64,000 nt of DNA from an uncultured Chitinophaga sp. (GCA_964412375.1 CAYPOD010000007.1:24123-88122); one strand, 5' to 3'. Positions 12,997 through 33,668 are shown, counted from the first letter of the stretch. Program-made: numbers and translations. The notes: generated by a model from the letters alone, not told the origin.

Positions 12997-13038
12997 AAAT
13001 AAAATTTTATATGATGAGCTAATAATTAAAAAACTATA

Positions 13039-16643: not shown

Positions 16644-16872
16644 ATGCAATTCAGAACAAGCAGTTAATGAGCCTTTCTTCGCAATCGTTGCTTACTAATT
16701 CAGCAGTATATAAAGAAAGGAAATTTCCGCCAACTGAATTTACAAAATTCAACAAAGTTCTTTATTGGAAGATTCTGATTTACAACCTCGATACTTTAGT
16801 ACCGGATTGCGTAAACCCAGGGAGAGGTTTTGCTGTCTCTGGAATTATTCATTTATCAAAACGACTTGCTTT

Positions 16873-19800
16873 ATGAAGGAAAATCAACGACCCGTCAAAA
16901 CGGGTTTTGGCAGACTTGCCTGCTTGCTGCTATTCTTCACCTTACTTTCGGTTACAGTACATGCACAGCAGGTTACCGGAACGGTAACCGATGATGAAAA
17001 AAAACCTGTTGCTGATGCATCCGTATCAGTGAAAGGCACCCGGAATGCCACAATGACTAACAACGACGGTAAATTCACTATCAATGCCGGCGGCAATGCT
17101 GTGCTGGTCATTACCCACGTAAGTTTTATGACACTGGAAATCCCGCTTAACAACCGGACCACTATTACCGTGGAGCTGGTAAAGAAAGATGGAACAGGTC
17201 TGGACGAAGTGGTGGTGACGGCTTTGGGTGTGAGACGTCAGTCAAAAAAACTGGGCTATGCCGCAACTTCTGTTAATACGGAAGAACTGGTCACCCAACG
17301 AACCACTAATATGATGGAGTCGCTGGAAGGTAAAGTGGCTGGCCTGAACATTACACCTCCTGCTGCCGGTGCCGGCGCCAGCACACAGATTCGTCTTCGC
17401 GGGCAAGCTGCATTTGCAGGTGCGAACAATGCTCCTCTTCTTGTCATCAATGGTCTGCCCATGGACCAGGATGCAAGAGGCGCCAACGGAAACGGTCAGA
17501 TTGCCCAAAGGGACCGTGGTGATAACCTGCAAAACATTAACCCGGATGATATTGAAAGCATGACCGTACTGAAAGGAGCAACTGCCGCCGCTATCTATGG
17601 CGCCAGGGCGGCCAATGGTGCGATCATTATCACTACCAAATCCGGCCAAAAGAACAGGGGCATCGGTGTAGATTTCACTTCGAGCTATACTATTTCAAAG
17701 GCCATGAACTTCTTTGATGAAATAACGCAGACAGAATACGGGCAAGGCCTTGCAGGTGCCCGGTTCACTACAGCTGGTCAAGCACAGGGCAATGGACAAT
17801 TTGGATGGGGAGAAAGATTGGATGGAGTGCCCACAATTAATTATGACGGAATCATGAGACCCTATTCTGCCCACCCTTACCAGCTTTTTGACTTTCTACA
17901 AACAGGAACCAATTTCACCAATACATTAGGATTGTCTGGCGGTGGTGCTAATGGAAGTTTCAGGGCATCAATCTCCAACACAGACTCCCGTGGCATTCAG
18001 CCTACCAATGAATATAAAAGAAGAATATTCAATCTGGGGATTACCCATGATGTAACCAAGAAGCTTAAACTGATGCTTAACATCAACTATGCTGATGAAG
18101 ACAACATCAACCCCCCGCAAATTGGTACACAGGGTGAAGGTGCAGTAAACTTCTTCACCAGGATGCCGATCTCTGTTCCGCTGGAGGCTTATAAGGAAAG
18201 CGTAATTGATCCTGCTACCGGCGCCGAATGGCGGACCAATGGTTTCCAGGGTACGATCAACAACCCCTTCTTCCAGTTGGTAAAAAAACAATTTTTTAAA
18301 GAGGATAGAAATCGCCTTCTTGGAACAGCTACTTTGCGTTATGATATAACGAGCTGGTTGTATGCACAAGGCAGGTTCAATCTTGACCGTAGCAACAGTT
18401 TTATGGAATGGAATGTACTGAATGGCGCCGGAGCTACTACTCTTTTAAATGGTGACAATACATACAGAGGTGCCTATAATATCAGACAGGATGCAACAAC
18501 CGATATTAATGCAGATTTCCTTATAGGCAGCAGCCATAAGATTAAAGATTTCACAGTTGATGCCAGCTTTGGCGGCAATACGCTAAGGACCCAGTGGCAG
18601 CGCAATGAACAAGGTGCAACCAATTTCACCGTACCGGATCTATATTCCATAGCTAATGGAACCATTCGGACCCAGGGTTATGGTTTTTCCAGGAGCCGCA
18701 TCAATTCGCTATATGGCTGGGCTGAGTTAGGATACAAAGACCTTTTATTCCTGAACTTTTCAGGTAGAAATGACTGGTTCTCTGTCCTGAATCCTGCCCA
18801 AAACAGCAAGTTCTATCCATCAGTATCCGGTAGCTTTATTTTTTCTGAATTGCTGAAAAGCCAGAGCTGGCTGAACTATGGTAAACTGAGGGCTTCCTGG
18901 GCAAAAGTGGGTAGTACAAATGGTGTGAATCCATTCGATGGTATTTTGACCTATGGAATTAACCAGAACCAGTTTAATGGACAGACCTTAGCCGGTGTTG
19001 CCGGTGGTAATGCACCCAATCCTTTCCTGCAGCCCTTTACCATTACAGAAAAAGAAATCGGTGTTGAATTGAAAATGTTTAAGAACAAAGTATTGCTGGA
19101 TGTCGCCGTATTTGATAAAGTGACAACCGACCAGATACTGAATGTTGTTCTTTCTAACTCATCCGGCTATTCCGGTTCACAACAAAACAAAGCTTCGCTG
19201 AAAAACAGCGGACTTGAAACTCTTCTTGAAGTAAGGGCCGTTCAAAACCGTAATTTCAGCTGGACCACTTCATGGAATAATGCTTATCTCAAAACTAAAG
19301 TTCTTGATGTCGGAAATGATAACGGAACAATTCTGCTGTTATTCTTTAACGGAACAGGAAACGAGTTTCTCGGTGAGATAAGATATACCGAGGGATTGGC
19401 CATGAACCAGCTTTACACCCGTACATACAGGAGAAATAACAAAGGGGAAGTGGTTGTGAGTAATGCGGGTCGTTTGCTCGCATCAACCGGCGGACCTGTG
19501 GGTAATGGATTCTTCCCTGTTGGCAGCTCCATTCCCAAATTTACCGGTGGATGGAACAACACATTTACATTTAATAAACTGAGTGTAGGGTTACATATTG
19601 ACTATAAATTTGGCGGCACTGTATTGGGTTCCACCCTGCTGAACATGACCCGCCAGGGACACTCCAAAATGTCACTGGAAGGAAGGGAAAACGGATTAAT
19701 CATTCCTGCTGTTTATGAAAGCACCGGGCTGCCTAATACTTCCGTTATACCTGTTGCAAGTTTGCAAGGACATTATACAGACTACAGGAACCTGCAGATC

Positions 19801-20076
19801 GGGGACCCCTTCACATTCAAGTCAGATTTTGTTAAACTTAGAAACGTGTCAGTATCATATGACCTGACCTCGATGATCAACAAAACACCGGCATTGAATT
19901 TTGTTAAAGGCCTGGTGATTTCAGCAGCTTGCCGTAATGCAGCGATACTTCACAAGGATATTCCCGGTTTGGATCCGGAAGCTATCCAGTCTTCCGGTGA
20001 TTTCAGGGCAGGTTATGAAAATTCATCTATGCCAACCACCCGTAATTTCAACTTTACCTTAAACGTCAAATTCTAA
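16873..20076 (+). CDS. SusC/RagA-family TonB-dependent outer-membrane transporter
   Basis: The in-frame ATG at 16873 gives MKENQRPVK...LLSVTVHAQQ (signal). VTGTVTDDEKKPVADASVSVKG is the carboxypeptidase-regulatory-like domain. LDEVVVTALG is the TonB box/plug, and the protein ends in F. No STN domain is visible. The longer ORF from 16765 is rejected. Confidence 0.9.
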   Translation: MKENQRPVKTGFGRLACLLLFFTLLSVTVHAQQVTGTVTDDEKKPVADASVSVKGTRNATMTNNDGKFTINAGGNAVLVITHVSFMTLEIPLNNRTTITVELVKKDGTGLDEVVVTALGVRRQSKKLGYAATSVNTEELVTQRTTNMMESLEGKVAGLNITPPAAGAGASTQIRLRGQAAFAGANNAPLLVINGLPMDQDARGANGNGQIAQRDRGDNLQNINPDDIESMTVLKGATAAAIYGARAANGAIIITTKSGQKNRGIGVDFTSSYTISKAMNFFDEITQTEYGQGLAGARFTTAGQAQGNGQFGWGERLDGVPTINYDGIMRPYSAHPYQLFDFLQTGTNFTNTLGLSGGGANGSFRASISNTDSRGIQPTNEYKRRIFNLGITHDVTKKLKLMLNINYADEDNINPPQIGTQGEGAVNFFTRMPISVPLEAYKESVIDPATGAEWRTNGFQGTINNPFFQLVKKQFFKEDRNRLLGTATLRYDITSWLYAQGRFNLDRSNSFMEWNVLNGAGATTLLNGDNTYRGAYNIRQDATTDINADFLIGSSHKIKDFTVDASFGGNTLRTQWQRNEQGATNFTVPDLYSIANGTIRTQGYGFSRSRINSLYGWAELGYKDLLFLNFSGRNDWFSVLNPAQNSKFYPSVSGSFIFSELLKSQSWLNYGKLRASWAKVGSTNGVNPFDGILTYGINQNQFNGQTLAGVAGGNAPNPFLQPFTITEKEIGVELKMFKNKVLLDVAVFDKVTTDQILNVVLSNSSGYSGSQQNKASLKNSGLETLLEVRAVQNRNFSWTTSWNNAYLKTKVLDVGNDNGTILLLFFNGTGNEFLGEIRYTEGLAMNQLYTRTYRRNNKGEVVVSNAGRLLASTGGPVGNGFFPVGSSIPKFTGGWNNTFTFNKLSVGLHIDYKFGGTVLGSTLLNMTRQGHSKMSLEGRENGLIIPAVYESTGLPNTSVIPVASLQGHYTDYRNLQIGDPFTFKSDFVKLRNVSVSYDLTSMINKTPALNFVKGLVISAACRNAAILHKDIPGLDPEAIQSSGDFRAGYENSSMPTTRNFNFTLNVKF

Positions 20077-20081: not shown

Positions 20082-21644
20082 ATGATAAAAATAATTAAAC
20101 GACTTCTCCTTATTGGCACTATCCCTTTTTTTACGGGATGTGATAAGGACTTCGTAGAAGTAAATACTAACCCATATGCGATCACATCAGTTGACCCGGG
20201 AATTTTATTTGCAGGTGCACAACGAAACCACCTGGGAACATGGGAGGCAGAACACACCATTGTGCAGCAGTTTGTAAACCCTTACAACCAGGGAGCGACA
20301 CTCGGGTTTAACTTTAATGAAGATATTGATGGTGTCAGCACACCAAAATGGGACCAGTCTTACCCGTCTATAGTCAGAAACCTGATACAGGCATTGAACC
20401 TTATAGGTAATGACCCTGCAAGGGTTAATTTAAGGAGCATGATCAGGATATGGAAAGCTCAGGTATTCATGGGAATAGTGGATGCATATGGAGACGTTCC
20501 CTATTTTGAAGCGGGTAGGGCTGTAAGTGATGCCATCTTTTATCCCAAATATGATGATGATGCTGCCATCTACGACGATTTGTATAAAGAACTCAAAGAG
20601 GCTACAGCGGCATTGAACCCGTCAGGAGATTATGTTCCCTCAGATCTTTTCTACGGAGCAAAAGCACATGCAACCACTACTACTTCCACTGCTACAGCAC
20701 AAGTTGCCAAATGGAAAAAACTTGGTTTTTCATTGATGCTGAGGCTGGGTATGCGTTATTCAAAAGTAAATGCTACAAAAGCGCAGAGTATAGTTACTGA
20801 AGCCGTTGCTGGCGGGGTGATGACATCCAACGCTGATAATGCTTTCGTAAAATACGATGGCTCACTATATACGCAGGCAACTAATAATAACCTGCGCAAC
20901 TTCTCTGCTTTCAACTATGCAGCCGAGCCTTATGTAAACCAACTGAAATCAACCAATGATCCCAGGGCAAGAAATATTCTCGCAAATTTTGCAGACCCGG
21001 GTAATCTTGTAGGTGAACCTAATCCTGACGTTGTTTTAGCCAACCAATATGGTGTTCCTATCGGAGTTACGAATGTGCAGATAGCAGCCGGAGCTCCTTA
21101 CCGTGGAACAAGAGGCACAGGCCTTAATTATTCGCAATTTAATATCTGGAGGATAGCCTCCCCCGCTGCGCCTGACTTCTATGTAACTTATGCCCAGACA
21201 GCTTTGTTGCTCGCAGAAGCGGCCAAAAGAGGGTGGATACCCGGCGGTGATGCTACAGCAAAAACACATTATGACAATGCTATTACAGCTGATATGGCAG
21301 TGCATTCGCTTTATCCTGGAACTACGCCTATTTCCGGCGCAGAAGTAGCAGCCTACTTGCTTGAACCGGGTGTAGAATATACCCCTGCCGATGCACTGAG
21401 ACTAATTAATACACAATACTGGTTAGTGAACATTAGAAACGGAACTGAAGCATTTGCCAATTTCAGGAGGAGCGGATTTCCTGCACTAAGCCCCAACCTG
21501 TTTAATAATAATCTGAGTGGTGGTTTTGCAAGAAGATTATCCTATCCTGATGCTGAGGCTTCTGCTAACGCAGCCAATTACAGTGCTGCAGCAGCCGCAA
21601 TCGGTGGTGATAAATTAACGTCAAGAGTGTTTTGGGATAACTAA
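20082..21644 (+). CDS. SusD/RagB-family nutrient-binding outer-membrane lipoprotein
   Basis: It starts 5 nt after SusC. The lipoprotein signal is LLLIGTIPFFTGC. The size, TPR-like composition and C-terminus RVFWDN are typical of SusD-like proteins. Confidence 0.85.
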   Translation: MIKIIKRLLLIGTIPFFTGCDKDFVEVNTNPYAITSVDPGILFAGAQRNHLGTWEAEHTIVQQFVNPYNQGATLGFNFNEDIDGVSTPKWDQSYPSIVRNLIQALNLIGNDPARVNLRSMIRIWKAQVFMGIVDAYGDVPYFEAGRAVSDAIFYPKYDDDAAIYDDLYKELKEATAALNPSGDYVPSDLFYGAKAHATTTTSTATAQVAKWKKLGFSLMLRLGMRYSKVNATKAQSIVTEAVAGGVMTSNADNAFVKYDGSLYTQATNNNLRNFSAFNYAAEPYVNQLKSTNDPRARNILANFADPGNLVGEPNPDVVLANQYGVPIGVTNVQIAAGAPYRGTRGTGLNYSQFNIWRIASPAAPDFYVTYAQTALLLAEAAKRGWIPGGDATAKTHYDNAITADMAVHSLYPGTTPISGAEVAAYLLEPGVEYTPADALRLINTQYWLVNIRNGTEAFANFRRSGFPALSPNLFNNNLSGGFARRLSYPDAEASANAANYSAAAAAIGGDKLTSRVFWDN

Positions 21645-21743
21645 ACTGAAGCATTGATTGATGATGACTACGGAAAAAACAGTTATCATGTGAGCACAAA
21701 AACCAAAGGCTTTCTTTTAGCAAGCAGATAGCAGTTACCAATC

Positions 21744-21771
21744 AAAAACCTTTGTTTCTACAAAGGTTTTT
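21744..21771 (+). terminator. Candidate intrinsic terminator after susC/susD pair
   Basis: AAAAACCTTTG-tttcta-CAAAGGTTTTT gives an 11-bp stem whose 3' arm ends in T5. It lies 100 nt after the SusD stop. Confidence 0.6.
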
Positions 21772-21952
21772 GGCTCATATAGGAAATTTAGCGACTGGAC
21801 AAATAAACATAAGCTGCCTGTAGAAAAGTAGTCAGCGTATGTGAATATGTCAGTATCTGAATAAAAAAAATAAAGGCTTCCATTCATGAGAATACCAGGC
21901 ATGCCGGCCAGATCTAATTAATCAGCCGCTATTGTTATTGAAAACTGAACGT

Positions 21953-23680
21953 ATGAAGAAAGATCAACAGAAACTTCGCAGTCACGATTGGTTTGGCCGC
22001 AAAGACAAGGACGGGATCATTTACAGGAGCTGGATGAGGAACCAGGGAATACCCTCAGATATGTTTGACGGGAGACCCGTTATTGGTATATGTAATACAT
22101 TCAGTGAACTTACTCCCTGCAATGCCCATTTCCGTGACCATGCAGAAGCGGTGAAAAAAGGTGTGATAGAAGCTGGTGGCTTCCCGGTTGAATTTCCGAT
22201 AATGAGTTTGGGTGAAACATTGCTGAAACCGACCGCCATGCTTTTCCGTAACCTGGCAAGTATGGATGCCGAGGAAAGTATCCGGGGGAATCCTATTGAC
22301 GGAGTTGTTTTGTTGACAGGTTGTGATAAAACAACACCATCTACAGTCATGGGGGCAGCCAGTGTTGGATTACCTACCATTGTTGTTCCCGGTGGCCCGA
22401 TGCTGAATGGTAGGTACAAAGGTCAAGCTATTGGAAGCGGCACCCATGTCTGGAAGTTTGATGAAGACATGAAGACGGGTAAGATGACACAAGAAGACTG
22501 TGAATTTGCAGAAAGTTGTATGAGCCGCAGCATCGGTCATTGCATGACCATGGGCACTGCATCCACCATGGCTTGTATGGTTGAGGCACTGGGTCTGACA
22601 TTAAGCGGCGCTGCTGCTATTCCTGCAGCCGATTCAAGAAAAAAACTGATGGCAAGGTTAAGCGGCCGGCGAATTGTTGAGATGGTAAAGGAAAACCTGA
22701 CCATTGATAAGATACTTACCCGTGAAGCATTTGAAAATGCAATTAAAGTAAGCGCTGCTGTCGGCGGTTCTTCCAACTATATTATCCACCTCACTGCCAT
22801 TGCTGGCCGCATTGGTGTACCGCTTGAGTTGGAAGATTTTGATAAGATCGGCAGCAAGATTCCCCTGCTGCTCAACCTGATGCCGGCAGGCAAGTATCTC
22901 ATGGAAGATTTTTATTATGCCGGCGGCCTGCCCGTAATATTGAATGAACTCAAAGATCATTTGCATAAAAATGTTATCACCGTAACTGGAAAAAATCATC
23001 ATGAGAATATCAAAGGCAGCACCGAACGATTTAACGCAGATGTGATTGCCTGTATGGATAATCCGCTTATCCCTGAAGCCGGCTGTGTGGTGGTAAAAGG
23101 CAACCTAGCCATGAATGGCGCTGTTATTAAACCTTCGGCTGCCAGCCCCGCCCTGATGAAACACAAAGGCCGGGCCGTGGTGTTTGAAAGCATCGAGGAT
23201 TATCATGCCAGGATTGATGATCCCGATCTTGACATTGATGAAAACTGTGTTCTTGTATTGAAATATGTTGGTCCTGTTGGTTATCCGGGTATGCCGGAAG
23301 TAGGCAATATGGCTTTACCTAAGAAAATACTGGAAAAAGGAATAAAGGATATGGTCCGCATCAGCGATGGTCGTATGAGCGGTACAGCCTATGGTACCAC
23401 CGTACTGCATGTATCACCCGAATCCGCAACCGGTGGCAACCTGGCCCTGGTTTATAATGGCGATATCATTGAGCTTGATGTTGCCCAGCGAAAACTTCAC
23501 CTGCATGTGAGCGATGAAGAACTGGAAAAAAGACGTGCAGCTTGGGTGAAACCTGCCCCGGCTGCCACAAGAGGTTATGTACATTTGTATATCAACCATG
23601 TGATGCAGGCCGACAAAGGCGCTGACCTTGACTTCCTGCAGGGAAGTTCTGGTTCTGTCGTCACCAGGGATTCACATTGA
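21953..23680 (+). CDS. IlvD/Edd-family dehydratase (pentonate dehydratase type: D-xylonate/L-arabinonate)
   Basis: MKKDQQKLRSHDWFGRKDKDGIIYRSWMRNQGIP...PVIGICNTFSELTPCNAHF resembles the sugar-acid dehydratase branch of IlvD/Edd. It also has CDKTTP and a C-terminal SDGRMSG. The ATG at 21953 is preferred over the TTG at 21932. Confidence 0.85.
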   Translation: MKKDQQKLRSHDWFGRKDKDGIIYRSWMRNQGIPSDMFDGRPVIGICNTFSELTPCNAHFRDHAEAVKKGVIEAGGFPVEFPIMSLGETLLKPTAMLFRNLASMDAEESIRGNPIDGVVLLTGCDKTTPSTVMGAASVGLPTIVVPGGPMLNGRYKGQAIGSGTHVWKFDEDMKTGKMTQEDCEFAESCMSRSIGHCMTMGTASTMACMVEALGLTLSGAAAIPAADSRKKLMARLSGRRIVEMVKENLTIDKILTREAFENAIKVSAAVGGSSNYIIHLTAIAGRIGVPLELEDFDKIGSKIPLLLNLMPAGKYLMEDFYYAGGLPVILNELKDHLHKNVITVTGKNHHENIKGSTERFNADVIACMDNPLIPEAGCVVVKGNLAMNGAVIKPSAASPALMKHKGRAVVFESIEDYHARIDDPDLDIDENCVLVLKYVGPVGYPGMPEVGNMALPKKILEKGIKDMVRISDGRMSGTAYGTTVLHVSPESATGGNLALVYNGDIIELDVAQRKLHLHVSDEELEKRRAAWVKPAPAATRGYVHLYINHVMQADKGADLDFLQGSSGSVVTRDSH

Positions 23681-23724
23681 TCCGGCACCCCGATGGGAAA
23701 AAAGTTGGAATAACGCTATGAAAT

Positions 23725-24735
23725 ATGAGAGTAACTCTTTTTGCTTTGCTGCTGACAACGGTATCTTGCTATCATGCAAAACAATCTGCCAACATGACCT
23801 TCAGGAATACCGGCGTCATTGAACGTATTGACCCGGCATTGGATCTGCTTATTGACAAAGAAGCAAAACCCGAAATTATCGCCGAAGGATTTGACTGGAG
23901 TGAAGGTCCACTTTGGGTTGAAAAACATAAAATGCTTCTTTTCTCTGATGTCCCCCGGAATGCCATCTATAAATGGACGGCTGAAAAAGGCGCTGAAGTC
24001 TATTTAAAACCATCTGGCTTCACCGGCACCGAAACAACCAGCAGGGAACCCGGCAGTAATGGATTGCTGCTTGACAGCAAAGGCAATCTGGTAATGTGCC
24101 AGCATGGCGACCGCCAGATGGCAAGGATGGATGCGCCATTGACAAAGCCACAGCCGAAATTTATCAGCTTAGCCGCTAAATATGAAGGCAAGCGATTCAA
24201 CAGTCCCAATGATGCTGCGTTTAACAGCGATGGCGAATTGTTTTTCACAGATCCTCCCTATGGTTTGCCTATGAAAAATGGCAGATATACCGATAAAGAA
24301 ACTGATTTCAACGGCGTTTATAAAGTAAAAAAGAACGGTGACGTGGTATTGCTGGTTGACAGCATCACCCGGCCCAATGGTATCATCTTTCTTCCCGGCG
24401 AAAAACAACTGATCGTGGCAAACAGCGATCCGGCAAGGCCCCACTGGTATATGTTTGATGTGAACGGCGATGCCTTAACAAACGGCCGGATATTTCACAG
24501 CGCAGCCGGCGGACCAAGGGGATTGAAAGGATTGCCCGATGGCCTGAAGGCCGATAAAAAAGGAAATGTATTTGCATCAGGACCCGGCGGTGTATGGATC
24601 TTTGACAGCACAGGAAAGCTGCTGGGAAAAATAAAACTGGATGAGGCCTGCTCCAACATTGCTTTGTCTGCAGACGGGAAAACCATGTATATTACCAATG
24701 ATATGTATGTGCTGCGGTTAAAAATGAGAAAATAA
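23725..24735 (+). CDS. SMP-30/gluconolactonase/LRE-family lactonase with N-terminal signal (possible lipoprotein)
   Basis: MRVTLFALLLTTVSC, then EGPLWVEKHKMLLFSDVPRNAIYKW...FNSPNDAAFNSDGELFFTDPPYG...PNGIIFLP, the six-bladed propeller lactonase pattern. Confidence 0.8.
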   Translation: MRVTLFALLLTTVSCYHAKQSANMTFRNTGVIERIDPALDLLIDKEAKPEIIAEGFDWSEGPLWVEKHKMLLFSDVPRNAIYKWTAEKGAEVYLKPSGFTGTETTSREPGSNGLLLDSKGNLVMCQHGDRQMARMDAPLTKPQPKFISLAAKYEGKRFNSPNDAAFNSDGELFFTDPPYGLPMKNGRYTDKETDFNGVYKVKKNGDVVLLVDSITRPNGIIFLPGEKQLIVANSDPARPHWYMFDVNGDALTNGRIFHSAAGGPRGLKGLPDGLKADKKGNVFASGPGGVWIFDSTGKLLGKIKLDEACSNIALSADGKTMYITNDMYVLRLKMRK

Positions 24736-24738
24736 ATC

Positions 24739-26064
24739 ATGGCTATTCTCACTATACTCCTGAGCATCGCAGTCATCGTTTTGCTCATCACAAAATTGAA
24801 ACTTCACCCATTCCTGGCATTGTTGCTTGTAAGTATTGTGCTGGGGCTTGTCACAGGGATGAACCCTGCTCTTGTCATCACATCCATCCAGGAGGGCTTT
24901 GGCGGAACCTTAGGAAAGATCGGCCTGGTGATCATACTCGGTGTGATGATCGGTGCGTTCCTCGAGCATAGTGGTGGCGCTTTGGTACTGGCCAACAAAA
25001 TTCTTTCACTTATCGGCAAAAAAAGAGTGGCAACTGCGATGGGCATCATCGGTTATGTCATTTCCATTCCTGTTTTTTCCGACAGTGGTTTTGTATTACT
25101 TTCTTCGTTGAATAAAACGCTAACCAAAAAAGCCGGTTTATCATTGGCAGGAACAGCTATCGCTTTAGGCCTCGGACTTTCCTGCACCCATGCATTGGTG
25201 CCTCCCACACCGGGGCCTGTAGCCGCAGCAGGAATATTGAATGCAGACCTTGCACTCGTAATGGGCCTGGGATTGATTGCAGCAGGTGTTGCATTGGTCG
25301 CCGCCTTACTTTTTGCCCATAAAGTTGCTGCAAAAATTTATATTGATCCCGGGCCATTGCCAGAAGAAGACAAGTCTGCAAAAACATATGCGCCGGGTTT
25401 GCTTCGTTCAGCATTACCTATATTGGTTCCTGTCATACTGATCGTTTTGAAATCAGTCACAGCAAATGCTGCTGCTGTAAACTGGCAATCATTGAAACAG
25501 ATCATATCCTTTGCCGGCGAACCCATCATTGCCTTATTGATCGGCTTTGCATTTTGCCTGCTGCTGCCACAGCGTTTGAATAAAGACATGCTTTCCACTG
25601 ATGGATGGGTGGGCAAAGCATTGACTGATTCGGCAACAATACTGCTGGTCACAGGCGCCGGGGGAATATTCGGAAAAGTGCTGCAAAATTCAGATATCGC
25701 CGCTATGCTGGGCGATGCACTCACACAATCGAGTATGGGTATCTTCCTGCCTTTTCTTTTGGCTGCCGCCTTAAAAACTGCACAAGGTTCCTCCACCGTG
25801 GCACTGATCACCACGGCATCAGTAATAGCGCCATTGATGAGTACACTGGGTTTTGTCAGTGAAATTGATAAAGCTATGGCGGTGATCGCAATTGGCGCCG
25901 GCTCATTGGTGGTTTCACATGTGAATGACAGTTTTTTCTGGGTGGTGACACAGATGAGCAATATGGATGTAAAAACAGGATACAAACTGCATACAACAGG
26001 AACATTGATCATCGGTAGCACAGCTATGGCTACCTTATATATATTATTTACTATTCTTCACTAA
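24739..26064 (+). CDS. GntP-family gluconate/aldonate:H+ symporter
   Basis: Polytopic protein. HPFLALLLVSIVLGL...GFGGTLGKIGLVIILGVMIG...PPTPGP are typical of GntP permeases. Confidence 0.85.
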   Translation: MAILTILLSIAVIVLLITKLKLHPFLALLLVSIVLGLVTGMNPALVITSIQEGFGGTLGKIGLVIILGVMIGAFLEHSGGALVLANKILSLIGKKRVATAMGIIGYVISIPVFSDSGFVLLSSLNKTLTKKAGLSLAGTAIALGLGLSCTHALVPPTPGPVAAAGILNADLALVMGLGLIAAGVALVAALLFAHKVAAKIYIDPGPLPEEDKSAKTYAPGLLRSALPILVPVILIVLKSVTANAAAVNWQSLKQIISFAGEPIIALLIGFAFCLLLPQRLNKDMLSTDGWVGKALTDSATILLVTGAGGIFGKVLQNSDIAAMLGDALTQSSMGIFLPFLLAAALKTAQGSSTVALITTASVIAPLMSTLGFVSEIDKAMAVIAIGAGSLVVSHVNDSFFWVVTQMSNMDVKTGYKLHTTGTLIIGSTAMATLYILFTILH

Positions 26065-26073
26065 ACATCAGAT

Positions 26074-26907
26074 ATGAAACTATATCGTACAACAGAAGGC
26101 ATTATCATTGAACATGGCAATCTCTTTTTTTCAACTGGCGATCACAACTGGGACCGGTTCATTAACGATGACAATTTGCTCGCTAAATGCAGCACCATTG
26201 TCAATACCAGTACGTCATCAACAAGCCAGTTACCTCCGGGTGCAGCTATCATGCCGGTATTGCAAAGCCAGGAGTTATGGGCCTGTGGTGTCACCTATCT
26301 GCGCAGCAAGATCGGCCGCCAGGAAGAATCAAAAGAAGCAGGCGGTGGTGATTTTTATGCGAGGGTATATGAAGCGGAAAGACCGGAAGCATTTTTTAAA
26401 TCCACTCCCCACCGGGTGGTGGGCCATGGCGGTAAAGTCAGGATCAGGAAAGATTCTACCTGGGATGTGCCTGAGCCGGAATTGACACTGGTGGTTTCTT
26501 CATCAGGAAAAATTGTTGGCTACACGGTTGGCAATGACATGAGCAGCCGGAGTATTGAAGGAGAAAATCCATTGTATTTGCCACAGGCAAAAACTTATGA
26601 TGGCTGTGCTGCAGTGGGACCGTGTGTGTATGTAACGGATGAGCCCATCCCCGCTTCCACCATGATCCGCCTTGTGATCAACCGAAACAACGAAACTGTT
26701 TTTGAGGGAGATGTTGGCATCAGCCAGATGAAAAGAACCGTGACGGAACTGGTTTCCTATGTGTACCGGGAATGTTCATTTCCTCATGGCGCACTGATCA
26801 TGACGGGTACAGGCATTGTTCCTGGTCATGACTTCACCCTTCAGCAGGGAGATGAGGTACAAATTACTATAGATGGTATCGGTACACTTATCAATACAGT
26901 AGCGTAA
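26074..26907 (+). CDS. Fumarylacetoacetate hydrolase (FAH) family protein, 2-keto-3-deoxy-pentonate dehydratase-like
   Basis: PEPELTLVVSSSGKIVGYTVGNDMSSRSIEGENPLYLPQAKTY...LIMTGTGIVP is an FAH fold resembling the KdaD/XylX-type dehydratases. Subfamily assignment is inference from context. Confidence 0.65.
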   Translation: MKLYRTTEGIIIEHGNLFFSTGDHNWDRFINDDNLLAKCSTIVNTSTSSTSQLPPGAAIMPVLQSQELWACGVTYLRSKIGRQEESKEAGGGDFYARVYEAERPEAFFKSTPHRVVGHGGKVRIRKDSTWDVPEPELTLVVSSSGKIVGYTVGNDMSSRSIEGENPLYLPQAKTYDGCAAVGPCVYVTDEPIPASTMIRLVINRNNETVFEGDVGISQMKRTVTELVSYVYRECSFPHGALIMTGTGIVPGHDFTLQQGDEVQITIDGIGTLINTVA

Positions 26908-26928: not shown

Positions 26929-28032
26929 ATGAAAAATCTGCTTATCATTCTTGCAATGGCCTCTGCTTTGTTGCACTGGCGTTGCACCAACAGTCATGCC
27001 GTGTCAAAACAAGATATAAATGACACAAAAGGGCTGAAAGATTATTACAAAGATTTTTTTGACATTGGAGTGGCTGTTTCCCCGCAGGCTTTAAAGAGAG
27101 ATGAAGCGGGACTGGTGATTGAGCATTTCAACAGCATGACTGCAGAAAATGCTATGAAAAGCGGCCCGATACATCCGCAGGAAAAAGTGTATAACTGGGC
27201 AGGTGGTGATTCCATTGCAGCATTTGCCAAACGAAATAACATGAAACTACGGGGGCATTGCCTCGTGTGGCACAGCCAGGCACCCCGCTGGTTTTTTACT
27301 GACTCCACAACAGGCAAACAAGTAACAAAGGAAGTGCTCCTCCAACGCATGAAAGATCATATCACTACCGTGGTGACAAGGTATAAAGGAACAATCTTTG
27401 CCTGGGATGTGGTGAATGAGGCGATATCTGATAAACCGGAAGAGTTTTATCGTCCTTCGCTTTTTTATACGATCATTGGTGAAGAATTTATTGCCAAGGC
27501 TTTCGAATATGCCCATGCCGCCGATCCCAATGCACTTTTGTTTTATAACGACTATAATGAGATCAATGACACGAAAAGAGCCAAGATCATTAAAATGGTC
27601 AGTGACCTGAAAGCAAAAGGAATTCCCATTCACGGTGTGGGGCTGCAGGCACACTGGGCCGTCAGTGAACCATCAGAGGAGAAACTGGAAACCACCTTAA
27701 AAGAGTTTTCATCATTGGGCCTGCCTCTTCATATTACAGAACTGGATATTTCCGTTTACCCGAAAGAACACAATGCCAGGGAAAAGAAACCGGGAGACTA
27801 CGACACTACTTTTACTGCAGATAAAGAAGCAAAGCAAATTGAAGTATATAAAATGTGTTTTGAAAAATTCAGGAAATATAAAAATCATATCAAAAGCGTT
27901 ACATTCTGGAATATTTCGGACAGAAGCAGCTGGCTGGATAATTTCCCGGTGAGAGGAAGAAAGGATTACCCCTTATTGTTTGACAGGGAATTAAAACCAA
28001 AGAAAGTATATTGGGAGATCATCAAATGGTAA
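26929..28032 (+). CDS. Glycoside hydrolase family 10 endo-1,4-beta-xylanase
   Basis: Signal peptide. HFNSMTAENAMK, LRGHCLVWHSQ, WDVVNEAI (acid/base) and ITELDIS (nucleophile) are canonical GH10 motifs. Confidence 0.9.
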   Translation: MKNLLIILAMASALLHWRCTNSHAVSKQDINDTKGLKDYYKDFFDIGVAVSPQALKRDEAGLVIEHFNSMTAENAMKSGPIHPQEKVYNWAGGDSIAAFAKRNNMKLRGHCLVWHSQAPRWFFTDSTTGKQVTKEVLLQRMKDHITTVVTRYKGTIFAWDVVNEAISDKPEEFYRPSLFYTIIGEEFIAKAFEYAHAADPNALLFYNDYNEINDTKRAKIIKMVSDLKAKGIPIHGVGLQAHWAVSEPSEEKLETTLKEFSSLGLPLHITELDISVYPKEHNAREKKPGDYDTTFTADKEAKQIEVYKMCFEKFRKYKNHIKSVTFWNISDRSSWLDNFPVRGRKDYPLLFDRELKPKKVYWEIIKW

Positions 28033-28041: not shown

Positions 28042-29085
28042 ATGATCACCGCTAAAGCTTACGCAGCGCAGGATGCTGCCAGTCCGCTCACTCCTTTTAC
28101 ATTTGAGAGAAGAGAGCTTCTACCGCATGATGTGCTGGTAGATATCTTGTATTGCGGCGTTTGTCACAGCGACCTGCACCAGGTGAGAAACGAATGGGGA
28201 GATGCTATATATCCTATGGTACCGGGTCATGAGATCATCGGGAAAGTGGTGGCAACGGGTAGTGCGGTCACGAAATTCAAGATTGGTGAAACAGCCGCTG
28301 TGGGTGTGATGATTGACAGTTGCCGCAGTTGCAACAACTGCCGCCAGTATATGGAACAATATTGTGATGAAGGCATGACCGGCACCTACAACACTTATGA
28401 ACGGGACAAAAAGACAATAGCACAAGGTGGTTATTCATCTGTAATTGTTACTGATGAAAGATGGGTGTATCATGTTGCTGACAGCCTGGACCCTGCTGCT
28501 GCGGCTCCATTATTGTGCGCCGGTATCACCACCTATTCACCCTTGCGCTTTGCCCATGTAGGTAAAGGCACGAAAGTGGGAGTGATAGGACTCGGCGGCC
28601 TGGGTCATTTGGGTGTAAAGTTCGCCGCTTCTTTCGGCGCTGAAGTGACACTGGTGAGCACCTCTGCATCCAAACAAAAAGATGCACATCGTCTCGGAGC
28701 CCACCAGTTCCTGCTGAGTACCGATGCTGCACAAATGAAAAAATTCTCTTCTTATTTTGATGTATTGCTCAATTGTGTTTCCGCCAACCATGATTACAGC
28801 AACTACCTGAAGCTCCTGGCGCTGGATGGGAAAATGCTTGTAGTTGGTTTGCCGGCAGAAGACCCACGTATCAGTCCTTTTGCCATCATCAAAAACCGCC
28901 GCTCCATCACAGGCTCCATGATCGGCGGAACGGTGGAAACACAGGAGATGCTTGATTATTGCGCAGAAAAAAATATTGTGTCCGATGTGGAAGTCATCCC
29001 TGTGCAGCAGGTGAATGAAGCCTATGAAAGAATGCTGCGCAATGATGTTCGTTATCGTTTTGTTCTTGACATGAAAACTCTCTGA
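28042..29085 (+). CDS. Zinc-dependent NAD(P) alcohol/aldehyde dehydrogenase (MDR, YahK/cinnamyl-ADH-like)
   Basis: GVCHSDLH, GHEIIGKV, the structural-zinc Cys cluster CRSCNNCRQYMEQYC and GLGGLGH (Rossmann). Confidence 0.85.
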   Translation: MITAKAYAAQDAASPLTPFTFERRELLPHDVLVDILYCGVCHSDLHQVRNEWGDAIYPMVPGHEIIGKVVATGSAVTKFKIGETAAVGVMIDSCRSCNNCRQYMEQYCDEGMTGTYNTYERDKKTIAQGGYSSVIVTDERWVYHVADSLDPAAAAPLLCAGITTYSPLRFAHVGKGTKVGVIGLGGLGHLGVKFAASFGAEVTLVSTSASKQKDAHRLGAHQFLLSTDAAQMKKFSSYFDVLLNCVSANHDYSNYLKLLALDGKMLVVGLPAEDPRISPFAIIKNRRSITGSMIGGTVETQEMLDYCAEKNIVSDVEVIPVQQVNEAYERMLRNDVRYRFVLDMKTL

Positions 29086-29090: not shown

Positions 29091-30773
29091 ATGAAAAAAA
29101 TATTTTTAATTGCTTCGCTGCTATATGCAGTCTGCTTATCCGGGCAACAACTTAGTTACCGCAACCCGATACTGGCCGGTTTTTATCCTGACCCCACTAT
29201 TTGCCGTGCGGGTGATGATTATTATATAACCAATTCCACATTTGTTTATTTCCCGGGGCTTCCCATATTTCATAGTAAAGACCTGGTAAACTGGAAACAG
29301 ATCGGAAATGCGATTGACAGGGCCGAACAGATGGATTTTGCCGGCGCCGGTGTGTCAAGAGGTTTGTTTGCACCATCCATTTCTTACCACAAGGGAACTT
29401 TCTACATTGTGTGTACATGGATTGACCGGATTGGCAATTTTGTGATCACGGCCAAAGATCCGAAAGGCCCCTGGAGCAATCCTGTTGCACTGCCACAGGT
29501 GAATGGTATTGATCCTGCCCTCTTCTTTGATGAAGATGACAAAGCTTATATCATTTACAACAGCATTCCTCCCGACAATAAGCCGATGCATGACGGTCAC
29601 CGCACCATCCGCATGTATCCTTTTGACTGGCAAAACCTGAAAGTCACCGGCAGTGAAATTTTGTTGGTGAATGGCGGAACAGATATGGCTAAAAAACCAG
29701 TGTGGATCGAAGCGCCGCATATCATCAAAAAGGATAGCTGGTATTACTTGATTTGTGCAGAAGGCGGCACGGGTTATAATCATTCGGAGGTGGTTTTCAG
29801 AAGTAAAGAGGTTGCAGGACCTTATGTGCCATATGAAAAGAACCCGATCCTTACTCAGCGGCACCTGGATCGTACACGATCCAACCCTGTCACTACAACC
29901 GGTCATGCTGATTTTGTAGAAACAAAAGATGGCAAATGGTATGCAGTGTTTTTAGGTTGCCGGCCATATGAAGAAGATCATTATAATATCGGGAGAGAAA
30001 CATTCATGTTACCGGTGACATGGAAAGATGGCTGGCCGCATATTTTAGAAGGAGATGAAACAGTGCAGTTCAAATACCCTGTGCCAATGCCTGACCTTAC
30101 AAAAAAGGTAAACAATCCCTACACAGGCAATTTTGTTTATAAAGATGACTTTAAAAGCAGCCAGTTAGACTATCGCTGGATTTTCTTAAGGGCACCTAAA
30201 GAAAACTGGTATAGCCTGGATGAAAAAAAAGGATGGTTGTCTGTAAAACTGCGGCCTGAGACAGTAAGGCAAAGACAAAACCCATCATTTGCCGGGCATC
30301 GCCAGCAGCATATGAAAGGAGAGGCTGTAACTTCCTTATCATTTAATGCAGCCGCTGAAAACGAAAAAGCAGGGCTTATCATTTTTCAGAATGAACAACA
30401 TCATTATTTTATCTGCCAGTCTGTAAAAGATAACCAGCCGGTGATTGAACTATTCAAAGGCCCCGGCAACCGTAATGCAGACAAAGAACCGGAGCTTCTT
30501 GCCTGGCAGCCATTAAAACAGAAAAAACAATCGCTGCAACTGAAAATCACATTTGATAAAGCCGATTATGCATTCTGGTTTTCCACAGGCGACAATAAAT
30601 GGGAATTGCTGAAAGACAAAGTGGATGGCAAGTTTTTAAGCACCTCCACCGCCGGCGGGTTTGTTGGCAGTGTGTTTGGGCTTTACGCCAGCTCCAACGG
30701 GAAAACAAGTGAAAGCAAAGCTTATTTTGACTGGTTTGAATACAAAGGAGACGATGAAGTATTTAAACAATAA
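29091..30773 (+). CDS. Glycoside hydrolase family 43 beta-xylosidase/alpha-L-arabinofuranosidase with C-terminal concanavalin-like domain
   Basis: Signal peptide. YRNPILAGFYPDPTICRAGDDYYITNSTFVYFPGLPIFHSKDLVNWKQIG is the XynB-type GH43 N-terminus. The C-terminal beta-sandwich ends in AYFDWFEY. Confidence 0.85.
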   Translation: MKKIFLIASLLYAVCLSGQQLSYRNPILAGFYPDPTICRAGDDYYITNSTFVYFPGLPIFHSKDLVNWKQIGNAIDRAEQMDFAGAGVSRGLFAPSISYHKGTFYIVCTWIDRIGNFVITAKDPKGPWSNPVALPQVNGIDPALFFDEDDKAYIIYNSIPPDNKPMHDGHRTIRMYPFDWQNLKVTGSEILLVNGGTDMAKKPVWIEAPHIIKKDSWYYLICAEGGTGYNHSEVVFRSKEVAGPYVPYEKNPILTQRHLDRTRSNPVTTTGHADFVETKDGKWYAVFLGCRPYEEDHYNIGRETFMLPVTWKDGWPHILEGDETVQFKYPVPMPDLTKKVNNPYTGNFVYKDDFKSSQLDYRWIFLRAPKENWYSLDEKKGWLSVKLRPETVRQRQNPSFAGHRQQHMKGEAVTSLSFNAAAENEKAGLIIFQNEQHHYFICQSVKDNQPVIELFKGPGNRNADKEPELLAWQPLKQKKQSLQLKITFDKADYAFWFSTGDNKWELLKDKVDGKFLSTSTAGGFVGSVFGLYASSNGKTSESKAYFDWFEYKGDDEVFKQ

Positions 30774-30841: not shown

Positions 30842-32908
30842 TTACTGACTCAGCAAGCTTTGTAAAATAACTGACACTTTCTCCGGGTTCGGCAGCATCG
30901 CCTGTTCCAGTCCCATATTCATCGGCACAGCCGGCAGGTTCAATGCACCCAGCACTTCCACCGGTGCATCGAGTGACTGAAAACAGTTTTTGGAAATTCT
31001 TCCGGCCAATGCTTCTGCAAATGAATTGTTTTGCTGCTCTTCTGTAAGCACCAGGCATTTTCCATGCAGCTTCACTCTTTCGAATATCAACTTTTCATCA
31101 AGGGGAAATAATGTCCGCAGATCAACGATCTCTACCCGGCCTTTAAAGTTCTTTGCTGCTGCTTTTGCCCAATACACACCCATGCCATAGGTGACAACAA
31201 CACAACTTTCACCAGCATCAATAATTTCTTTATCGGCCTCCAATATAATATTGGCCTTGCCCAGCGGAATGATATAATCCCGGGATGGTTCCGGCATTTT
31301 GGCGTCCTCTGTTCCGGGCACTTTGCTCCAGTAAAGACCTTTATGCTCCAGCATCACCACAGGGTTACCGTCATAAAAAGCAGCTTTCATCAACCCTTTC
31401 ATATCTGCTGCATTGGAAGGATAAACCACTTTGATACCTTTCACAGATAGAACTGTCGTTTCAACAGAACCACTATGATAAGGGCCACCGCCACCATAAG
31501 CACCGACAGGCACACGAAGGATCATAGAAACCGGGAACTTGCCGCAGCTCAGGTAACAGCTTTTTGAAATCTCCGTCACCAGTTGATTGAAGCCGGGATA
31601 GATATAATCAGCAAACTGCACTTCCACAATTGGTTTCAACCCCACTGCATGCATACCAACGGTTGAACCAACAATATAAGCTTCCTGTATAGCCGTGTTG
31701 AAAACACGAAGATCACCAAAACGTTCAGCCAATGTTGCGGCTTCACGAAATACACCTCCCAGCCTTCTGCCTACATCCTGTCCATATAAAACACATTCCG
31801 GGTGTTCTTCCATCAGTTCGCGGATGGCAAACAAAGCAGCATCCACCATCATCACTTTTTCTGAACCAGCAGGGCTTCTTTCCCCTTTTTCGACAGTGAC
31901 AGATGTTGGAACAAAAACATAGTCATCTACAGTGTTGGGATCAGGCTCCGGAGCAGCCACTGCTTTGGCAAACTCAATTTCGATAAAATGTGCAGCTTCT
32001 TTTTCGATTTGCTGCAATTCAAACTCCGACAATCCTCTTTCCAATAATTTCTTTTTCAATTTGGGGCCGGGATCATGTTCCAAATGCCGGGCCCAGTCTT
32101 CTTCTGTTCTGTAAAAATCTTTTCTTACACCACTGGTATGATGTCCCAGCAAAGGCACCTGTGCATGAACGAGGTAAGGTTTTCTTTCGCGGCGGACAAA
32201 CCCACACACTTGCTTCATCACACTGTATGACGCTTCAAAATCACTACCATCCACCTGGATGCGGTTCATTCCTTTGAAACCAGCAGCAAATTCAAAAGCA
32301 TTCATCGCCCTTGCTTCTTCCGCTGTTACACTGATGCCCCAGTTATTATCCTGTACCAGGTAAATAACCGGAAGTTGTTTTAGCACCGCAAATTGGAATG
32401 CTTCGCTTACTTCACCTTCCGTAACACTTGCATCACCCAAAGAACAGATTACAACCGGAAGTTCATCATTTGCACCTTTATTTAGCTTAGCAACATTTGT
32501 CTTTTCCCAAAACTGAATTCCCTGTGCAATTCCTGTTGTGGGTATCACCTGCATTCCTGTAGCGCTGCTTTGATGAATGATAGTTGGCTTATCGCTGCCT
32601 TTATAATTGGGGTGATTATAATATTCCCTGCCACCGGTGAAAATATCATTGCCTTTGGCCAGCAATTGCAGCATCAGTTCATAGGGTGAAAAGCCGAGGC
32701 CCAGCATCATGCTTTCGTCGCGGTAGTAAGGACTCACAAAATCCTGCGGCTGCAACTGGAAAGCGGTGGCTAATTGAATGGCTTCGTGACCGCGGGAAGT
32801 GGAATGAACGTATTTGCAAACGGAACGATTGGTCTCGTATGTTTCGGCCATCACTTTGGCCCGGCACATCAGGCGGTAAGCTTCGAGTAATAAAGATGTT
32901 TCTATCAT
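30842..32908 (-). CDS. Fused E1 alpha/beta component of a thiamine-diphosphate 2-oxoacid (branched-chain type) dehydrogenase
   Basis: The N-half has E1-alpha features (GDASVTEGEVSEAFQFA). The C-half has the transketolase-like E1-beta pattern (QDVGRLGGVFR...FNTAIQEAYIVG). The ATG at 32908 is preferred over the TTG at 32917. Confidence 0.85.
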   Translation of the reverse strand: MIETSLLLEAYRLMCRAKVMAETYETNRSVCKYVHSTSRGHEAIQLATAFQLQPQDFVSPYYRDESMMLGLGFSPYELMLQLLAKGNDIFTGGREYYNHPNYKGSDKPTIIHQSSATGMQVIPTTGIAQGIQFWEKTNVAKLNKGANDELPVVICSLGDASVTEGEVSEAFQFAVLKQLPVIYLVQDNNWGISVTAEEARAMNAFEFAAGFKGMNRIQVDGSDFEASYSVMKQVCGFVRRERKPYLVHAQVPLLGHHTSGVRKDFYRTEEDWARHLEHDPGPKLKKKLLERGLSEFELQQIEKEAAHFIEIEFAKAVAAPEPDPNTVDDYVFVPTSVTVEKGERSPAGSEKVMMVDAALFAIRELMEEHPECVLYGQDVGRRLGGVFREAATLAERFGDLRVFNTAIQEAYIVGSTVGMHAVGLKPIVEVQFADYIYPGFNQLVTEISKSCYLSCGKFPVSMILRVPVGAYGGGGPYHSGSVETTVLSVKGIKVVYPSNAADMKGLMKAAFYDGNPVVMLEHKGLYWSKVPGTEDAKMPEPSRDYIIPLGKANIILEADKEIIDAGESCVVVTYGMGVYWAKAAAKNFKGRVEIVDLRTLFPLDEKLIFERVKLHGKCLVLTEEQQNNSFAEALAGRISKNCFQSLDAPVEVLGALNLPAVPMNMGLEQAMLPNPEKVSVILQSLLSQ

Positions 32909-32963
32909 GAACAGCAAGCAATGAAAGCAGCAAAATTAGGGCAATCAGGTTGAGCTGCTAATG

Positions 32964-33056: not shown

Positions 33057-33668
33057 TTATTTCACTTCGAGGGCAAATAGGCTGTCATCTTCGATAAAGC
33101 CCTCCAGTTCGTCACCCACCACCACTTCACCCACACCGGCAGGGGTGCCTGTAAAGATCATATCGCCGATATTGACAGAAAAATAATTAGAAATATAGGA
33201 GACGATCGTATCAAAATTGTGGATCATGTTGCCTGAATTGCCCTGCTGCACCAGTTCCTTATTTTTATACAAACAGAAATTAATGTCTTTTTTGTTTTTG
33301 ATATTGGCCAGCGGAATCCATTTTCCTACTACGGCTGAATTATCCCATGCTTTTGCTTTTTCCCAGGGAAGCCCTTTTGCTTTCAGTTCATTCTGGATGT
33401 CCCTTGCGGTGAAGTCGATACCCGTTGAAATGGCATCATAATATTTGCCGGCAAATTTTTCCTGTATGTATTTCCCGTTTTTGCTGATACGCAGCACCAG
33501 TTCACATTCGTAATGGAGTTCATTGGTGAATTCGGGATAATAAAAAGGTGTATGCGGCTGGAGCAAAGCACTTTTCGGCTTCATAAAAATGACCGGCTCA
33601 TCAGGGATCTCGTTTCCCAGCTCTTCGGCATGAGCTGCATAATTACGGCCTACACAAAAAATCTTCAT
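33057..33668 (-). CDS. Fumarylacetoacetate hydrolase family protein (YcgM/FAHD1-like)
   Basis: The length is 203 aa. MKIFCVGRNYAAHAEELG...ELHYECELVLRI...TARDIQ...PWEKAKAWDNS...GDMIFTGTPAGVG is the short FAH-family pattern. Confidence 0.8.
   Translation of the reverse strand: MKIFCVGRNYAAHAEELGNEIPDEPVIFMKPKSALLQPHTPFYYPEFTNELHYECELVLRISKNGKYIQEKFAGKYYDAISTGIDFTARDIQNELKAKGLPWEKAKAWDNSAVVGKWIPLANIKNKKDINFCLYKNKELVQQGNSGNMIHNFDTIVSYISNYFSVNIGDMIFTGTPAGVGEVVVGDELEGFIEDDSLFALEVK

Follow-up and report, generated by a model that had tools for sequence, protein, structure and literature searches.

A Weimberg-type oxidative pentose route proposed for a xylan utilisation locus of Chitinophagaceae and divided across the inner membrane

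In the usual account of xylan utilisation by Bacteroidota, the last steps are those of xylose isomerase and xylulokinase. Here we analyse a stretch of 64,000 nucleotides (nt) from an uncultured Chitinophaga sp. (GCA_964412375.1 CAYPOD010000007.1:24123-88122; hereafter the window), in which genes resembling those of oxidative pentonate degradation are strung together with genes for xylan breakdown. The question raised by this locus is whether its host may oxidise the pentoses that it releases from xylan and, if so, by which route and in which compartment. An earlier note on this DNA had proposed a Weimberg- or Dahms-like pathway split between periplasm and cytoplasm. The evidence presented here favours the Weimberg pathway and the split, and is less favourable to a Dahms ending. 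We assign a probability of roughly 60% to the reading that the window encodes a Weimberg-type oxidative pentose route, set within an (arabino/glucurono)xylan utilisation locus and divided across the inner membrane.

The G+C content of the window is about 44% and its genes are nearest to those of Chitinophagaceae genomes, the host being a soil member of the Bacteroidota (Chitinophagaceae). For comparative analysis, species-representative genomes (one per species) were scanned with the KdaD-type protein of the window. At least 582 stretches matched, from which we retrieved 80 loci. Homologues of window genes were counted within 10 kb of the KdaD gene in these 80 loci; many contigs being short, the counts are minimum values.

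The gene string and its enzymes

Adjacent genes on the + strand encode a SusC-like TonB-dependent transporter (16765-20076; TIGR04056, 582 bits) and a SusD-like lipoprotein (20082-21644; Pfam), with the gene of an AraC-family regulator (15756-16649, - strand) diverging from susC. They are followed on the + strand by genes for an IlvD/EDD sugar-acid dehydratase of the pentonate dehydratase type (21953-23680; Pfam, NCBIfam and PDB matches), the mechanically called open reading frame of which opens at a TTG at 21932, an SMP-30/gluconolactonase-family (SMP-30/SGL) lactonase with a lipoprotein signal (23725-24735; Pfam and N-terminus), a GntP-family permease (24739-26064; Pfam and NCBIfam) and an FAH-family protein of the KdaD type (26074-26907; match to PDB 2Q18). 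The string continues, as had been claimed, with genes for a GH10 endo-xylanase carrying a signal peptide (26929-28032; Pfam), a cytoplasmic zinc-dependent alcohol dehydrogenase (Zn-ADH) of the CAD/YahK/Ahr class (28042-29085; Pfam and NCBIfam) and a GH43 beta-xylosidase/arabinofuranosidase with a signal peptide and a C-terminal concanavalin A-like beta-xylosidase domain (GH43_C2; 29091-30773, + strand). Family assignments from SusC to GH43 lie far over the Pfam and NCBIfam thresholds. From IlvD to GH43 the intergenic gaps measure 44, 3, 9, 21, 9 and 5 nt, in agreement with the range of 3-44 nt described for this single + strand string. With its adjacent SusC/SusD pair, GH10, GH43, divergent AraC and the GH97, GH43-CBM6, GH95, CE4-CE15 and GH35 proteins encoded upstream, the locus has the composition of a xylan-type polysaccharide utilization locus (PUL).

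The string had also been placed directly downstream of SusC/SusD. The dehydratase gene is indeed the next gene on the same strand, but it is set apart by a 308-nt spacer (21645-21952) containing a strong 13-bp hairpin (21742-21773, + strand). In the closest syntenic relative (L082, GCA_964437415.1), which has the same AraC-to-GH43 order and the same flanks and lacks the Zn-ADH gene, the spacer is of comparable length and different sequence, and the hairpin sequence is not kept. Neither a regulatory RNA nor a Bacteroidota-type TAnnTTTG promoter motif was found in the gap, and sigma-70 and terminator scans did no better than on shuffled sequence. The hairpin may act as a partial terminator or attenuator, setting the ratio of susCD to enzyme. 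We infer co-transcription of the ilvD string with susCD, which is plausible, as well as the regulation of the locus.

The FAH-family protein matches the KdaD of Sulfolobus solfataricus (PDB 2Q18) with 203 bits (E 3e-59) and about 50% identity over the matched region. The second-best structure lies at E 1e-18; hydrolases, isomerases and decarboxylases of the FAH family are at 1e-10 or worse, and the only other structure to score well, that of an unnamed 383-aa protein (9KKT), does so with 71 bits. Sulfolobus KdaD combines an N-terminal domain with an FAH domain and has Glu143, Glu145 and Asp164 as metal ligands and a Glu114/Lys182 dyad (PMC9795676). The protein of the window has 277 aa against 293 in KdaD, and its N-terminal 60 residues are unaligned in phmmer. 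The Mg ligands correspond to its E134, E136 and D155 and the Glu/Lys dyad to E105 and K173, all five residues being invariant in 198 homologues, and no signal peptide was detected in it. A diketo-acid hydrolase or an HpaG-type isomerase/decarboxylase was rejected as its identity (25-42 bits, against 203 for KdaD). The resemblance to KdaD previously noted thus extends to the catalytic residues, and the match, a clear one of orthologue type, predicts a KdaD-type 2-keto-3-deoxy-pentonate dehydratase (EC 4.2.1.141). Automatic pipelines (JGI names) already label this gene correctly.

Among NCBIfam models, the IlvD/EDD protein scores 910 bits against PRK06131 (cut-off 539) and 856 against L-arabinonate dehydratase, just short of that model's cut-off of 882, while ilvD (459, cut-off 618), edd (215, cut-off 708) and YjhG/YagF (188, cut-off 808) remain far under theirs. 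Its nearest structures are PuDHT (8EJ0, 863 bits) and the L-arabinonate dehydratase of R. leguminosarum (RlArDHT, 777 bits), followed at a distance by galactonate dehydratase (475), Caulobacter XylD (452), dihydroxy-acid dehydratases (about 310 or less) and Edd (171). Alignment to 8EJ0 and 5J83 reveals the segments TPCNAH, GCDKT, GHCMT and MSGTAYG and a terminal RDSH, so that the three cysteines coordinating the [2Fe-2S] cluster, the catalytic Ser within SGTA and the C-terminal His are all retained. Sugar-acid dehydratases are recognised by SGTA and by a His at the C-terminus (PMC9314677), and the Cys ligands and the catalytic Ser of the class have been named (PMC9795676). These markers, together with scores far under the family cut-offs, rule out a true IlvD or Edd and leave the earlier assignment to the pentonate dehydratase type standing. 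Judged by these features, the protein is a sugar-acid dehydratase and not an enzyme of branched-chain amino acid synthesis or of the Entner-Doudoroff pathway; no signal peptide was found in it. L-Arabinonate, D-gluconate and D-galactonate share with D-xylonate the same 2R,3S configuration. The class takes only 2R,3S acids, D-xylonate being among the pentonates tested, and both PuDHT and RlArDHT dehydrate D-xylonate; PuDHT prefers D-gluconate (PMC9314677).

The N-terminus of the lactonase (MRVTLFALLLTTVSC) comprises a signal followed by a lipobox Cys (Cys15), as anticipated from the first inspection of the locus. A signal with a Cys recurs in 29 of the 36 lactonase homologues encoded beside kdaD genes, the remainder having mostly ordinary signals or being truncated. 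The best structural match is an exported gluconolactonase of Xanthomonas (3DR2, E 3e-34), and SMP-30/SGL is the family of all known pentonolactonases, which supports lactonase function at the family level. Surface export of Bacteroidota lipoproteins is signalled by C-X-K-(D/E)2 (PMC5080379). The lactonase has no acidic residues at positions +2 to +8 after the Cys and hence lacks this signal, so it is probably a lipoprotein facing the periplasm. The GntP-family permease, whose presence in the string is borne out by both Pfam and NCBIfam, would be a candidate pentonate importer, pentonate specificity being presumed.

A further candidate enzyme is encoded some distance upstream, at 9439-10572 (+ strand), where a gene for a Gfo/Idh/MocA oxidoreductase of the aldose-aldose oxidoreductase (AAOR) and glucose-fructose oxidoreductase (GFOR) type closes an upstream string of GH97, GH43/CBM6, GH95, CE4/CE15 and GH35 genes. 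The N-terminus of its product shows the twin-arginine translocation (Tat) motif SRRKFL, with a hydrophobic segment and then a Cys behind it. Its best structural matches are the Caulobacter AAOR (5A02, 273 bits) and the Zymomonas GFOR (240 bits), against 100 bits or less for glycoside 3-dehydrogenases and inositol dehydrogenases, and its best NCBIfam match, D-xylose 1-dehydrogenase Gfo6, falls under the cut-off. Identity as a glycoside 3-dehydrogenase is unlikely, since the 273 bits for AAOR compare with 92-96 for DgpA and 40 for glucuronide 3-dehydrogenase. An AAOR-like gene lies directly upstream of the dehydratase gene on the same strand in 10 of the 80 loci and adjoins the cluster in 2 more, and 9 of 12 homologues carry a Tat motif. 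In L007 and L055 the order CE4/CE15-GFO leads into IlvD-SMP30, thereby joining parts that the window has in separate operons at a distance of 12 kb. AAOR is Tat-exported, binds NADP tightly and converts D-xylose into equimolar xylonate and xylitol (PMC4628093; PMC9795676); its physiological function has been stated to be unclear (PMC4628093). Motif, matches and adjacency in relatives all agree with the suggestion that a Tat-exported enzyme at 9439 might oxidise pentoses, and we regard the protein as a candidate periplasmic aldose 1-oxidising enzyme. As a separate observation, the GFO homologues of the window (9439) and of L007, L015, L021, L034, L041, L046 and L055 combine the twin-arginine motif with a conserved Cys some 25 residues later (e.g. 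SNCN, TDCN), and AAOR-like proteins of this kind may be Tat-exported lipoproteins.

Conservation in related loci and the final step

An IlvD-(SMP30)-KdaD-GntP module recurs in related genomes, mostly beside SusC/D and xylan enzymes. Near the KdaD gene we counted IlvD in 49 of the 80 loci, GntP-family permeases (of two subfamilies) in 44, SMP30 in 37, SusC in 26, SusD in 24, GH10 in 20, FGGY kinases in 15 and AraC regulators in 19, in all of which the AraC gene adjoins the SusC/D-IlvD-KdaD string. Carriers within the Chitinophagaceae include Flavisolibacter, Ferruginibacter, Segetibacter, Filimonas, Paracnuella and Terrimonas; others are Cyclobacteriaceae, Pontibacter, Saonia, Autumnicola, metagenome-assembled genomes (MAGs) labelled Flavobacteriaceae, Fodinibius, Rhodohalobacter and Cellvibrio. 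Recurrence of IlvD, GntP and SMP-30 near KdaD in several families of Bacteroidota indicates more than chance clustering. GH51 arabinofuranosidase, acetyl- and feruloyl-esterases, GH88 and GH115 also recur in the neighbourhood, and xylose isomerase does so at times; in loci with the last of these, the oxidative route would accompany the isomerase route and not replace it. Two loci from MAGs labelled Citrobacter (L033 and L065) contain a SusC/SusD locus with genes 64-88% identical to those of the window, and mis-binning or mislabelling of Bacteroidota contigs is the almost certain explanation.

Completion of a Weimberg pathway requires a 2-oxoglutarate-semialdehyde (alpha-ketoglutarate-semialdehyde) dehydrogenase (KGSADH), which the earlier note had described as absent from the window. 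We likewise found no aldehyde dehydrogenase (ALDH) in the 64-kb window, either by tblastn with an ALDH from a neighbour locus (best E 3.6) or in Pfam scans. A KGSADH-like ALDH of 525 aa is present in 18 of the 80 loci, usually adjacent, in the orders ALDH-IlvD-KdaD or KdaD-ALDH-IlvD. The NCBIfam models that it fits best are those of 2-oxoglutarate-semialdehyde and 2,5-dioxovalerate dehydrogenases, both far under their cut-offs, and its structural class is that of 3V4C/1EYY. It is the gene expected to complete the Weimberg pathway in those 18 loci. Only 2 of them contain SMP30, against 35 of the other 62, and this near-exclusion could have a phylogenetic or a functional cause.

The proposed route and its alternatives

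Enzyme families and subfamilies, catalytic residues, export signals and a conserved gene order can be read from the sequence and suggest the following scheme, in which we infer D-xylose and/or L-arabinose to be the substrate. SusC/D would take up xylo-oligosaccharides, from which the exported GH10 and GH43 enzymes and the upstream debranching enzymes would generate periplasmic pentoses, as expected from the signals on GH10 and GH43. The Tat-exported AAOR/GFOR-type enzyme at 9439 would oxidise the anomeric carbon (C1) of the pentose to an aldonolactone. A second sugar would probably be reduced to an alditol in the same reaction, since AAOR/GFOR-type enzymes keep their NADP bound and need a sugar as electron acceptor; entry would then be a dismutation like that of AAOR in vitro. 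The SMP-30 lipoprotein would open the aldonolactone ring and GntP would import the resulting pentonate to the cytoplasm, where the [2Fe-2S] IlvD/EDD enzyme would form 2-keto-3-deoxy-pentonate and the KdaD-type FAH enzyme 2,5-dioxopentanoate (2-oxoglutarate semialdehyde). An aldehyde dehydrogenase encoded outside the window would then yield 2-oxoglutarate.

Several observations weigh against this scheme. The hairpin in the 308-nt gap may uncouple the pathway genes from susCD. No aldehyde dehydrogenase gene lies in the window, and because ALDH and SMP30 rarely share a locus, the variant with the lactonase might have another final step. A stereochemical tension arises as well, in that the dehydratase is nearer to an L-arabinonate enzyme, but FAH-type KdaD is described as acting on the D-form of the intermediate (PMC9795676), the form that D-xylonate would give. 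The substrate preference of PuDHT for D-gluconate and the gluconokinase-like character of a neighbouring FGGY kinase point to other acids, and an oxidoreductase lies nearby in only 12 of the 80 loci.

The last of these counts bears on the source of the pentonate. The lactonase, permease and two dehydratases form the kept core, with the lactonase in 37 and the GntP family in 44 loci, and none of the clusters contains a cytoplasmic pentose dehydrogenase. Such a pattern would suit an organism that scavenges aldonates, aldonolactones or C1-oxidised xylo-oligosaccharides made by others (for instance by fungal or bacterial oxidases, or by lytic monooxygenases on hemicellulose), its own oxidoreductase not being the main source and the cytoplasmic steps staying the same. 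The AAOR-like gene nevertheless lies directly upstream in the same strand string where it is present, and occurs in the window too, and oxidised oligosaccharides have no direct support as substrates of the SusC/D pair of the window; we consider scavenging a real, if unlikely, alternative. The opposite proposal makes the AAOR-type enzyme the physiological entry, by a periplasmic dismutation of pentoses, or of the reducing ends of xylo-oligosaccharides, that needs no soluble cofactor, with the lactone half passing to 2-oxoglutarate and the alditol half recovered through accessory genes (the CAD-type Zn-ADH and the FGGY kinase). We put this forward tentatively, as doubtful in its full extent. If true, it would provide a first physiological role for aldose-aldose oxidoreductases and reveal a second route for pentoses, widespread among Bacteroidota of soil and sea and free of ATP cost up to 2-oxoglutarate semialdehyde.

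Two further alternatives concern the carbon skeleton and the end of the pathway. The preference of PuDHT, the closest characterised dehydratase, and the adjacent kinase would fit a six-carbon acid route, in which gluconate or galactonate arises by periplasmic oxidation, or glucuronate of glucuronoxylan is converted to glucarate, and the FAH enzyme acts on a six-carbon keto-deoxy acid. The CE15 glucuronoyl esterase and the GH115 and GH88 enzymes of related loci are compatible with it, as is the activity of an SMP-30 lactonase on glucurono- and glucaro-lactone in pseudomonads (PMC9007349). Set against this are the near 50% identity of the FAH protein to KdaD with identical catalytic residues, the lack of a 2-keto-3-deoxygluconate kinase or a 2-keto-3-deoxy-6-phosphogluconate aldolase, an operon without glucarate dehydratase or KdgD-type enzyme, and a context dominated by xylanase, xylosidase and arabinofuranosidase genes, all of which make a six-carbon route improbable. 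A pathway ending in the Dahms manner, with RraA-like cleavage to pyruvate and glycolaldehyde and a YahK-like Zn-ADH clearing the aldehyde, or as route III, with oxidation and hydrolysis to pyruvate and glycolate, would account for the lack of an ALDH in the window. Pyruvate aldolases for 4-hydroxy-2-keto acids are among the enzymes with an RraA fold, genes for RraA-like and enolase-superfamily proteins occur beside kdaD in 7 loci each (directly so in L058, L064 and L068), and the Zn-ADH is of the aldehyde-reductase class. Positive support for such an ending is limited to this co-location, however, and the 203 bits of the FAH protein to KdaD compare with 25 to an FAH-type diketo-acid hydrolase; the RraA-like protein lacks an informative characterised relative, the Zn-ADH is missing from L082 and the cluster contains no short-chain dehydrogenase/reductase (SDR) acting as 4-dehydrogenase. 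Either variant is, in our assessment, a long shot. The Weimberg-type reading with a periplasmic front end is thus the one that we retain.

Neighbouring genes and known systems

The Zn-ADH gene is found in 5 of the 80 loci, always closing an acid-sugar string; its absence from L082, the closest syntenic relative, implies that it is dispensable, and it looks like an accessory gene. Between the AAOR-like gene and the AraC gene lies a divergent operon (10661-15745, - strand) encoding a gluconokinase-like FGGY kinase (14210-15745), an SBF/BASS transporter (13039-14163), a 328-aa RraA-like protein (12010-12996), for which no informative structural relative was found, and an enolase-superfamily acid-sugar dehydratase (10661-11938), the best structure of which is 2QQ6, of unknown function. 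Xylulokinase identity is not supported for the FGGY kinase, which scores 280 bits against XylB (cut-off 380) and has a gluconate kinase as its best structure; it is 25% identical to the FGGY kinase, presumably a xylulokinase, that is encoded beside xylose isomerase in L004. This operon is possibly linked to the pentonate route. Because of the GH95 gene upstream, it may provide another route for acid sugars, namely for acids of 2S,3R configuration such as L-fuconate, L-galactonate or D-arabinonate; alternatively, it may be a Dahms-type branch.

The upstream debranching operon includes genes for a 690-aa fusion of a CE4 deacetylase and a CE15 glucuronoyl-esterase (5683-7755) and a GH35-family protein with DUF5597 (7779-9398), along with GH97, GH43-CBM6 and GH95, a set that suggests complex glucuronoarabinoxylan as substrate. 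Downstream of the string, a 691-aa protein that unites the alpha and beta portions of a 2-oxoacid dehydrogenase E1 in one chain (30842-32917, - strand) and a 203-aa YcgM/FAHD1-like FAH protein (33057-33668, - strand) are both kept in the syntenic relative; their genes probably have housekeeping functions unrelated to the route. An S-adenosylmethionine (SAM) riboswitch (RF00162, 77.6 bits; 41603-41723, + strand) precedes genes for a Cys/Met pyridoxal phosphate enzyme (42274-43677), an alpha/beta hydrolase (43565-44737) and a homoserine dehydrogenase (44727-46001), probably a methionine biosynthesis operon. A region for surface-polysaccharide biosynthesis (46042-63304) follows, with GT2 and GT4 transferases, a Wzx-like flippase, a Wzy-like polymerase, an ATP-binding cassette exporter, an epimerase/dehydratase and, within it, a B12-binding radical SAM protein (61098-62642).

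Each enzyme of the proposed route belongs to a known family and would do a known job; it is the assembly, a Weimberg-type route in SusC/D xylan loci with a front end of exported AAOR/GFOR-type oxidoreductase and lipoprotein lactonase and with an archaeal-type KdaD, that we have not found described. Our searches yielded no published work joining xylonate with polysaccharide utilization and tangential mentions only for Weimberg with Bacteroid, and the GapMind paper does not mention pentonates. The oxidative pentose module appears widespread, ecologically relevant and directly testable, if mechanistically unsurprising. A conserved oxidative branch in these loci would change models of carbon flow in Chitinophagaceae and their relatives, which are abundant degraders in soil and rhizosphere, with pentose carbon reaching 2-oxoglutarate without loss and without ATP investment. 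The genomic context suggests a testable role for aldose-aldose oxidoreductases, and the loci offer bacterial dehydratases of the KdaD and sugar-acid types in large number, for the steps that limit engineered Weimberg pathways.

Pseudomonas taiwanensis VLB120 operates a Weimberg pathway split between periplasm and cytoplasm, in which GntP or another permease imports xylonate (PMC11252243). The window would share with it periplasmic aldose oxidation, a lactonase, GntP import and cytoplasmic IlvD/EDD and FAH dehydratases. Entry in P. taiwanensis is by a pyrroloquinoline quinone glucose dehydrogenase on the respiratory chain, whereas in the window it would be by a Tat-exported Gfo/Idh/MocA enzyme, and the lipoprotein lactonase, the archaeal KdaD-type FAH protein, the SusC/D xylan locus and the lack of a nearby KGSADH gene also set the window apart. 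In Caulobacter crescentus, xylXABCD covers the steps from lactone to 2,5-dioxopentanoate with the same SMP-30, IlvD/EDD and FAH families; that route is all cytoplasmic and begins with an SDR xylose dehydrogenase, whereas dehydrogenase and lactonase of the window are predicted to be exported, and Caulobacter XylD scores only 452 bits against the window dehydratase. The orthologue type of KdaD is that of the D-arabinose pathway of Sulfolobus solfataricus (AraDH, AraD, KdaD, DopDH) and of the xylose pathway of Haloferax. The enolase-superfamily dehydratase and the medium-chain dehydrogenase/reductase Zn-ADH of the window belong to the families of the first two Sulfolobus steps, and enolase-KdaD-ALDH strings in relatives (L064) recall that pathway. 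Unlike in Sulfolobus, the first dehydratase of the operon is of the IlvD/EDD family and the Zn-ADH is of the CAD/YahK class and not AraDH, and the system is bacterial, exported and PUL-linked. The closest parallels to the proposed entry are the Caulobacter AAOR (CC1225, 5A02) and the Zymomonas GFOR, which are Tat-exported Gfo/Idh/MocA enzymes of the type that converts aldoses to lactones. Zymomonas GFOR is moreover paired, as the candidate enzyme of the window would be, with an exported SMP-30-family lactonase, but its products serve osmoprotection and gluconate catabolism, whereas those of the window would enter a pentonate-to-2-oxoglutarate route.

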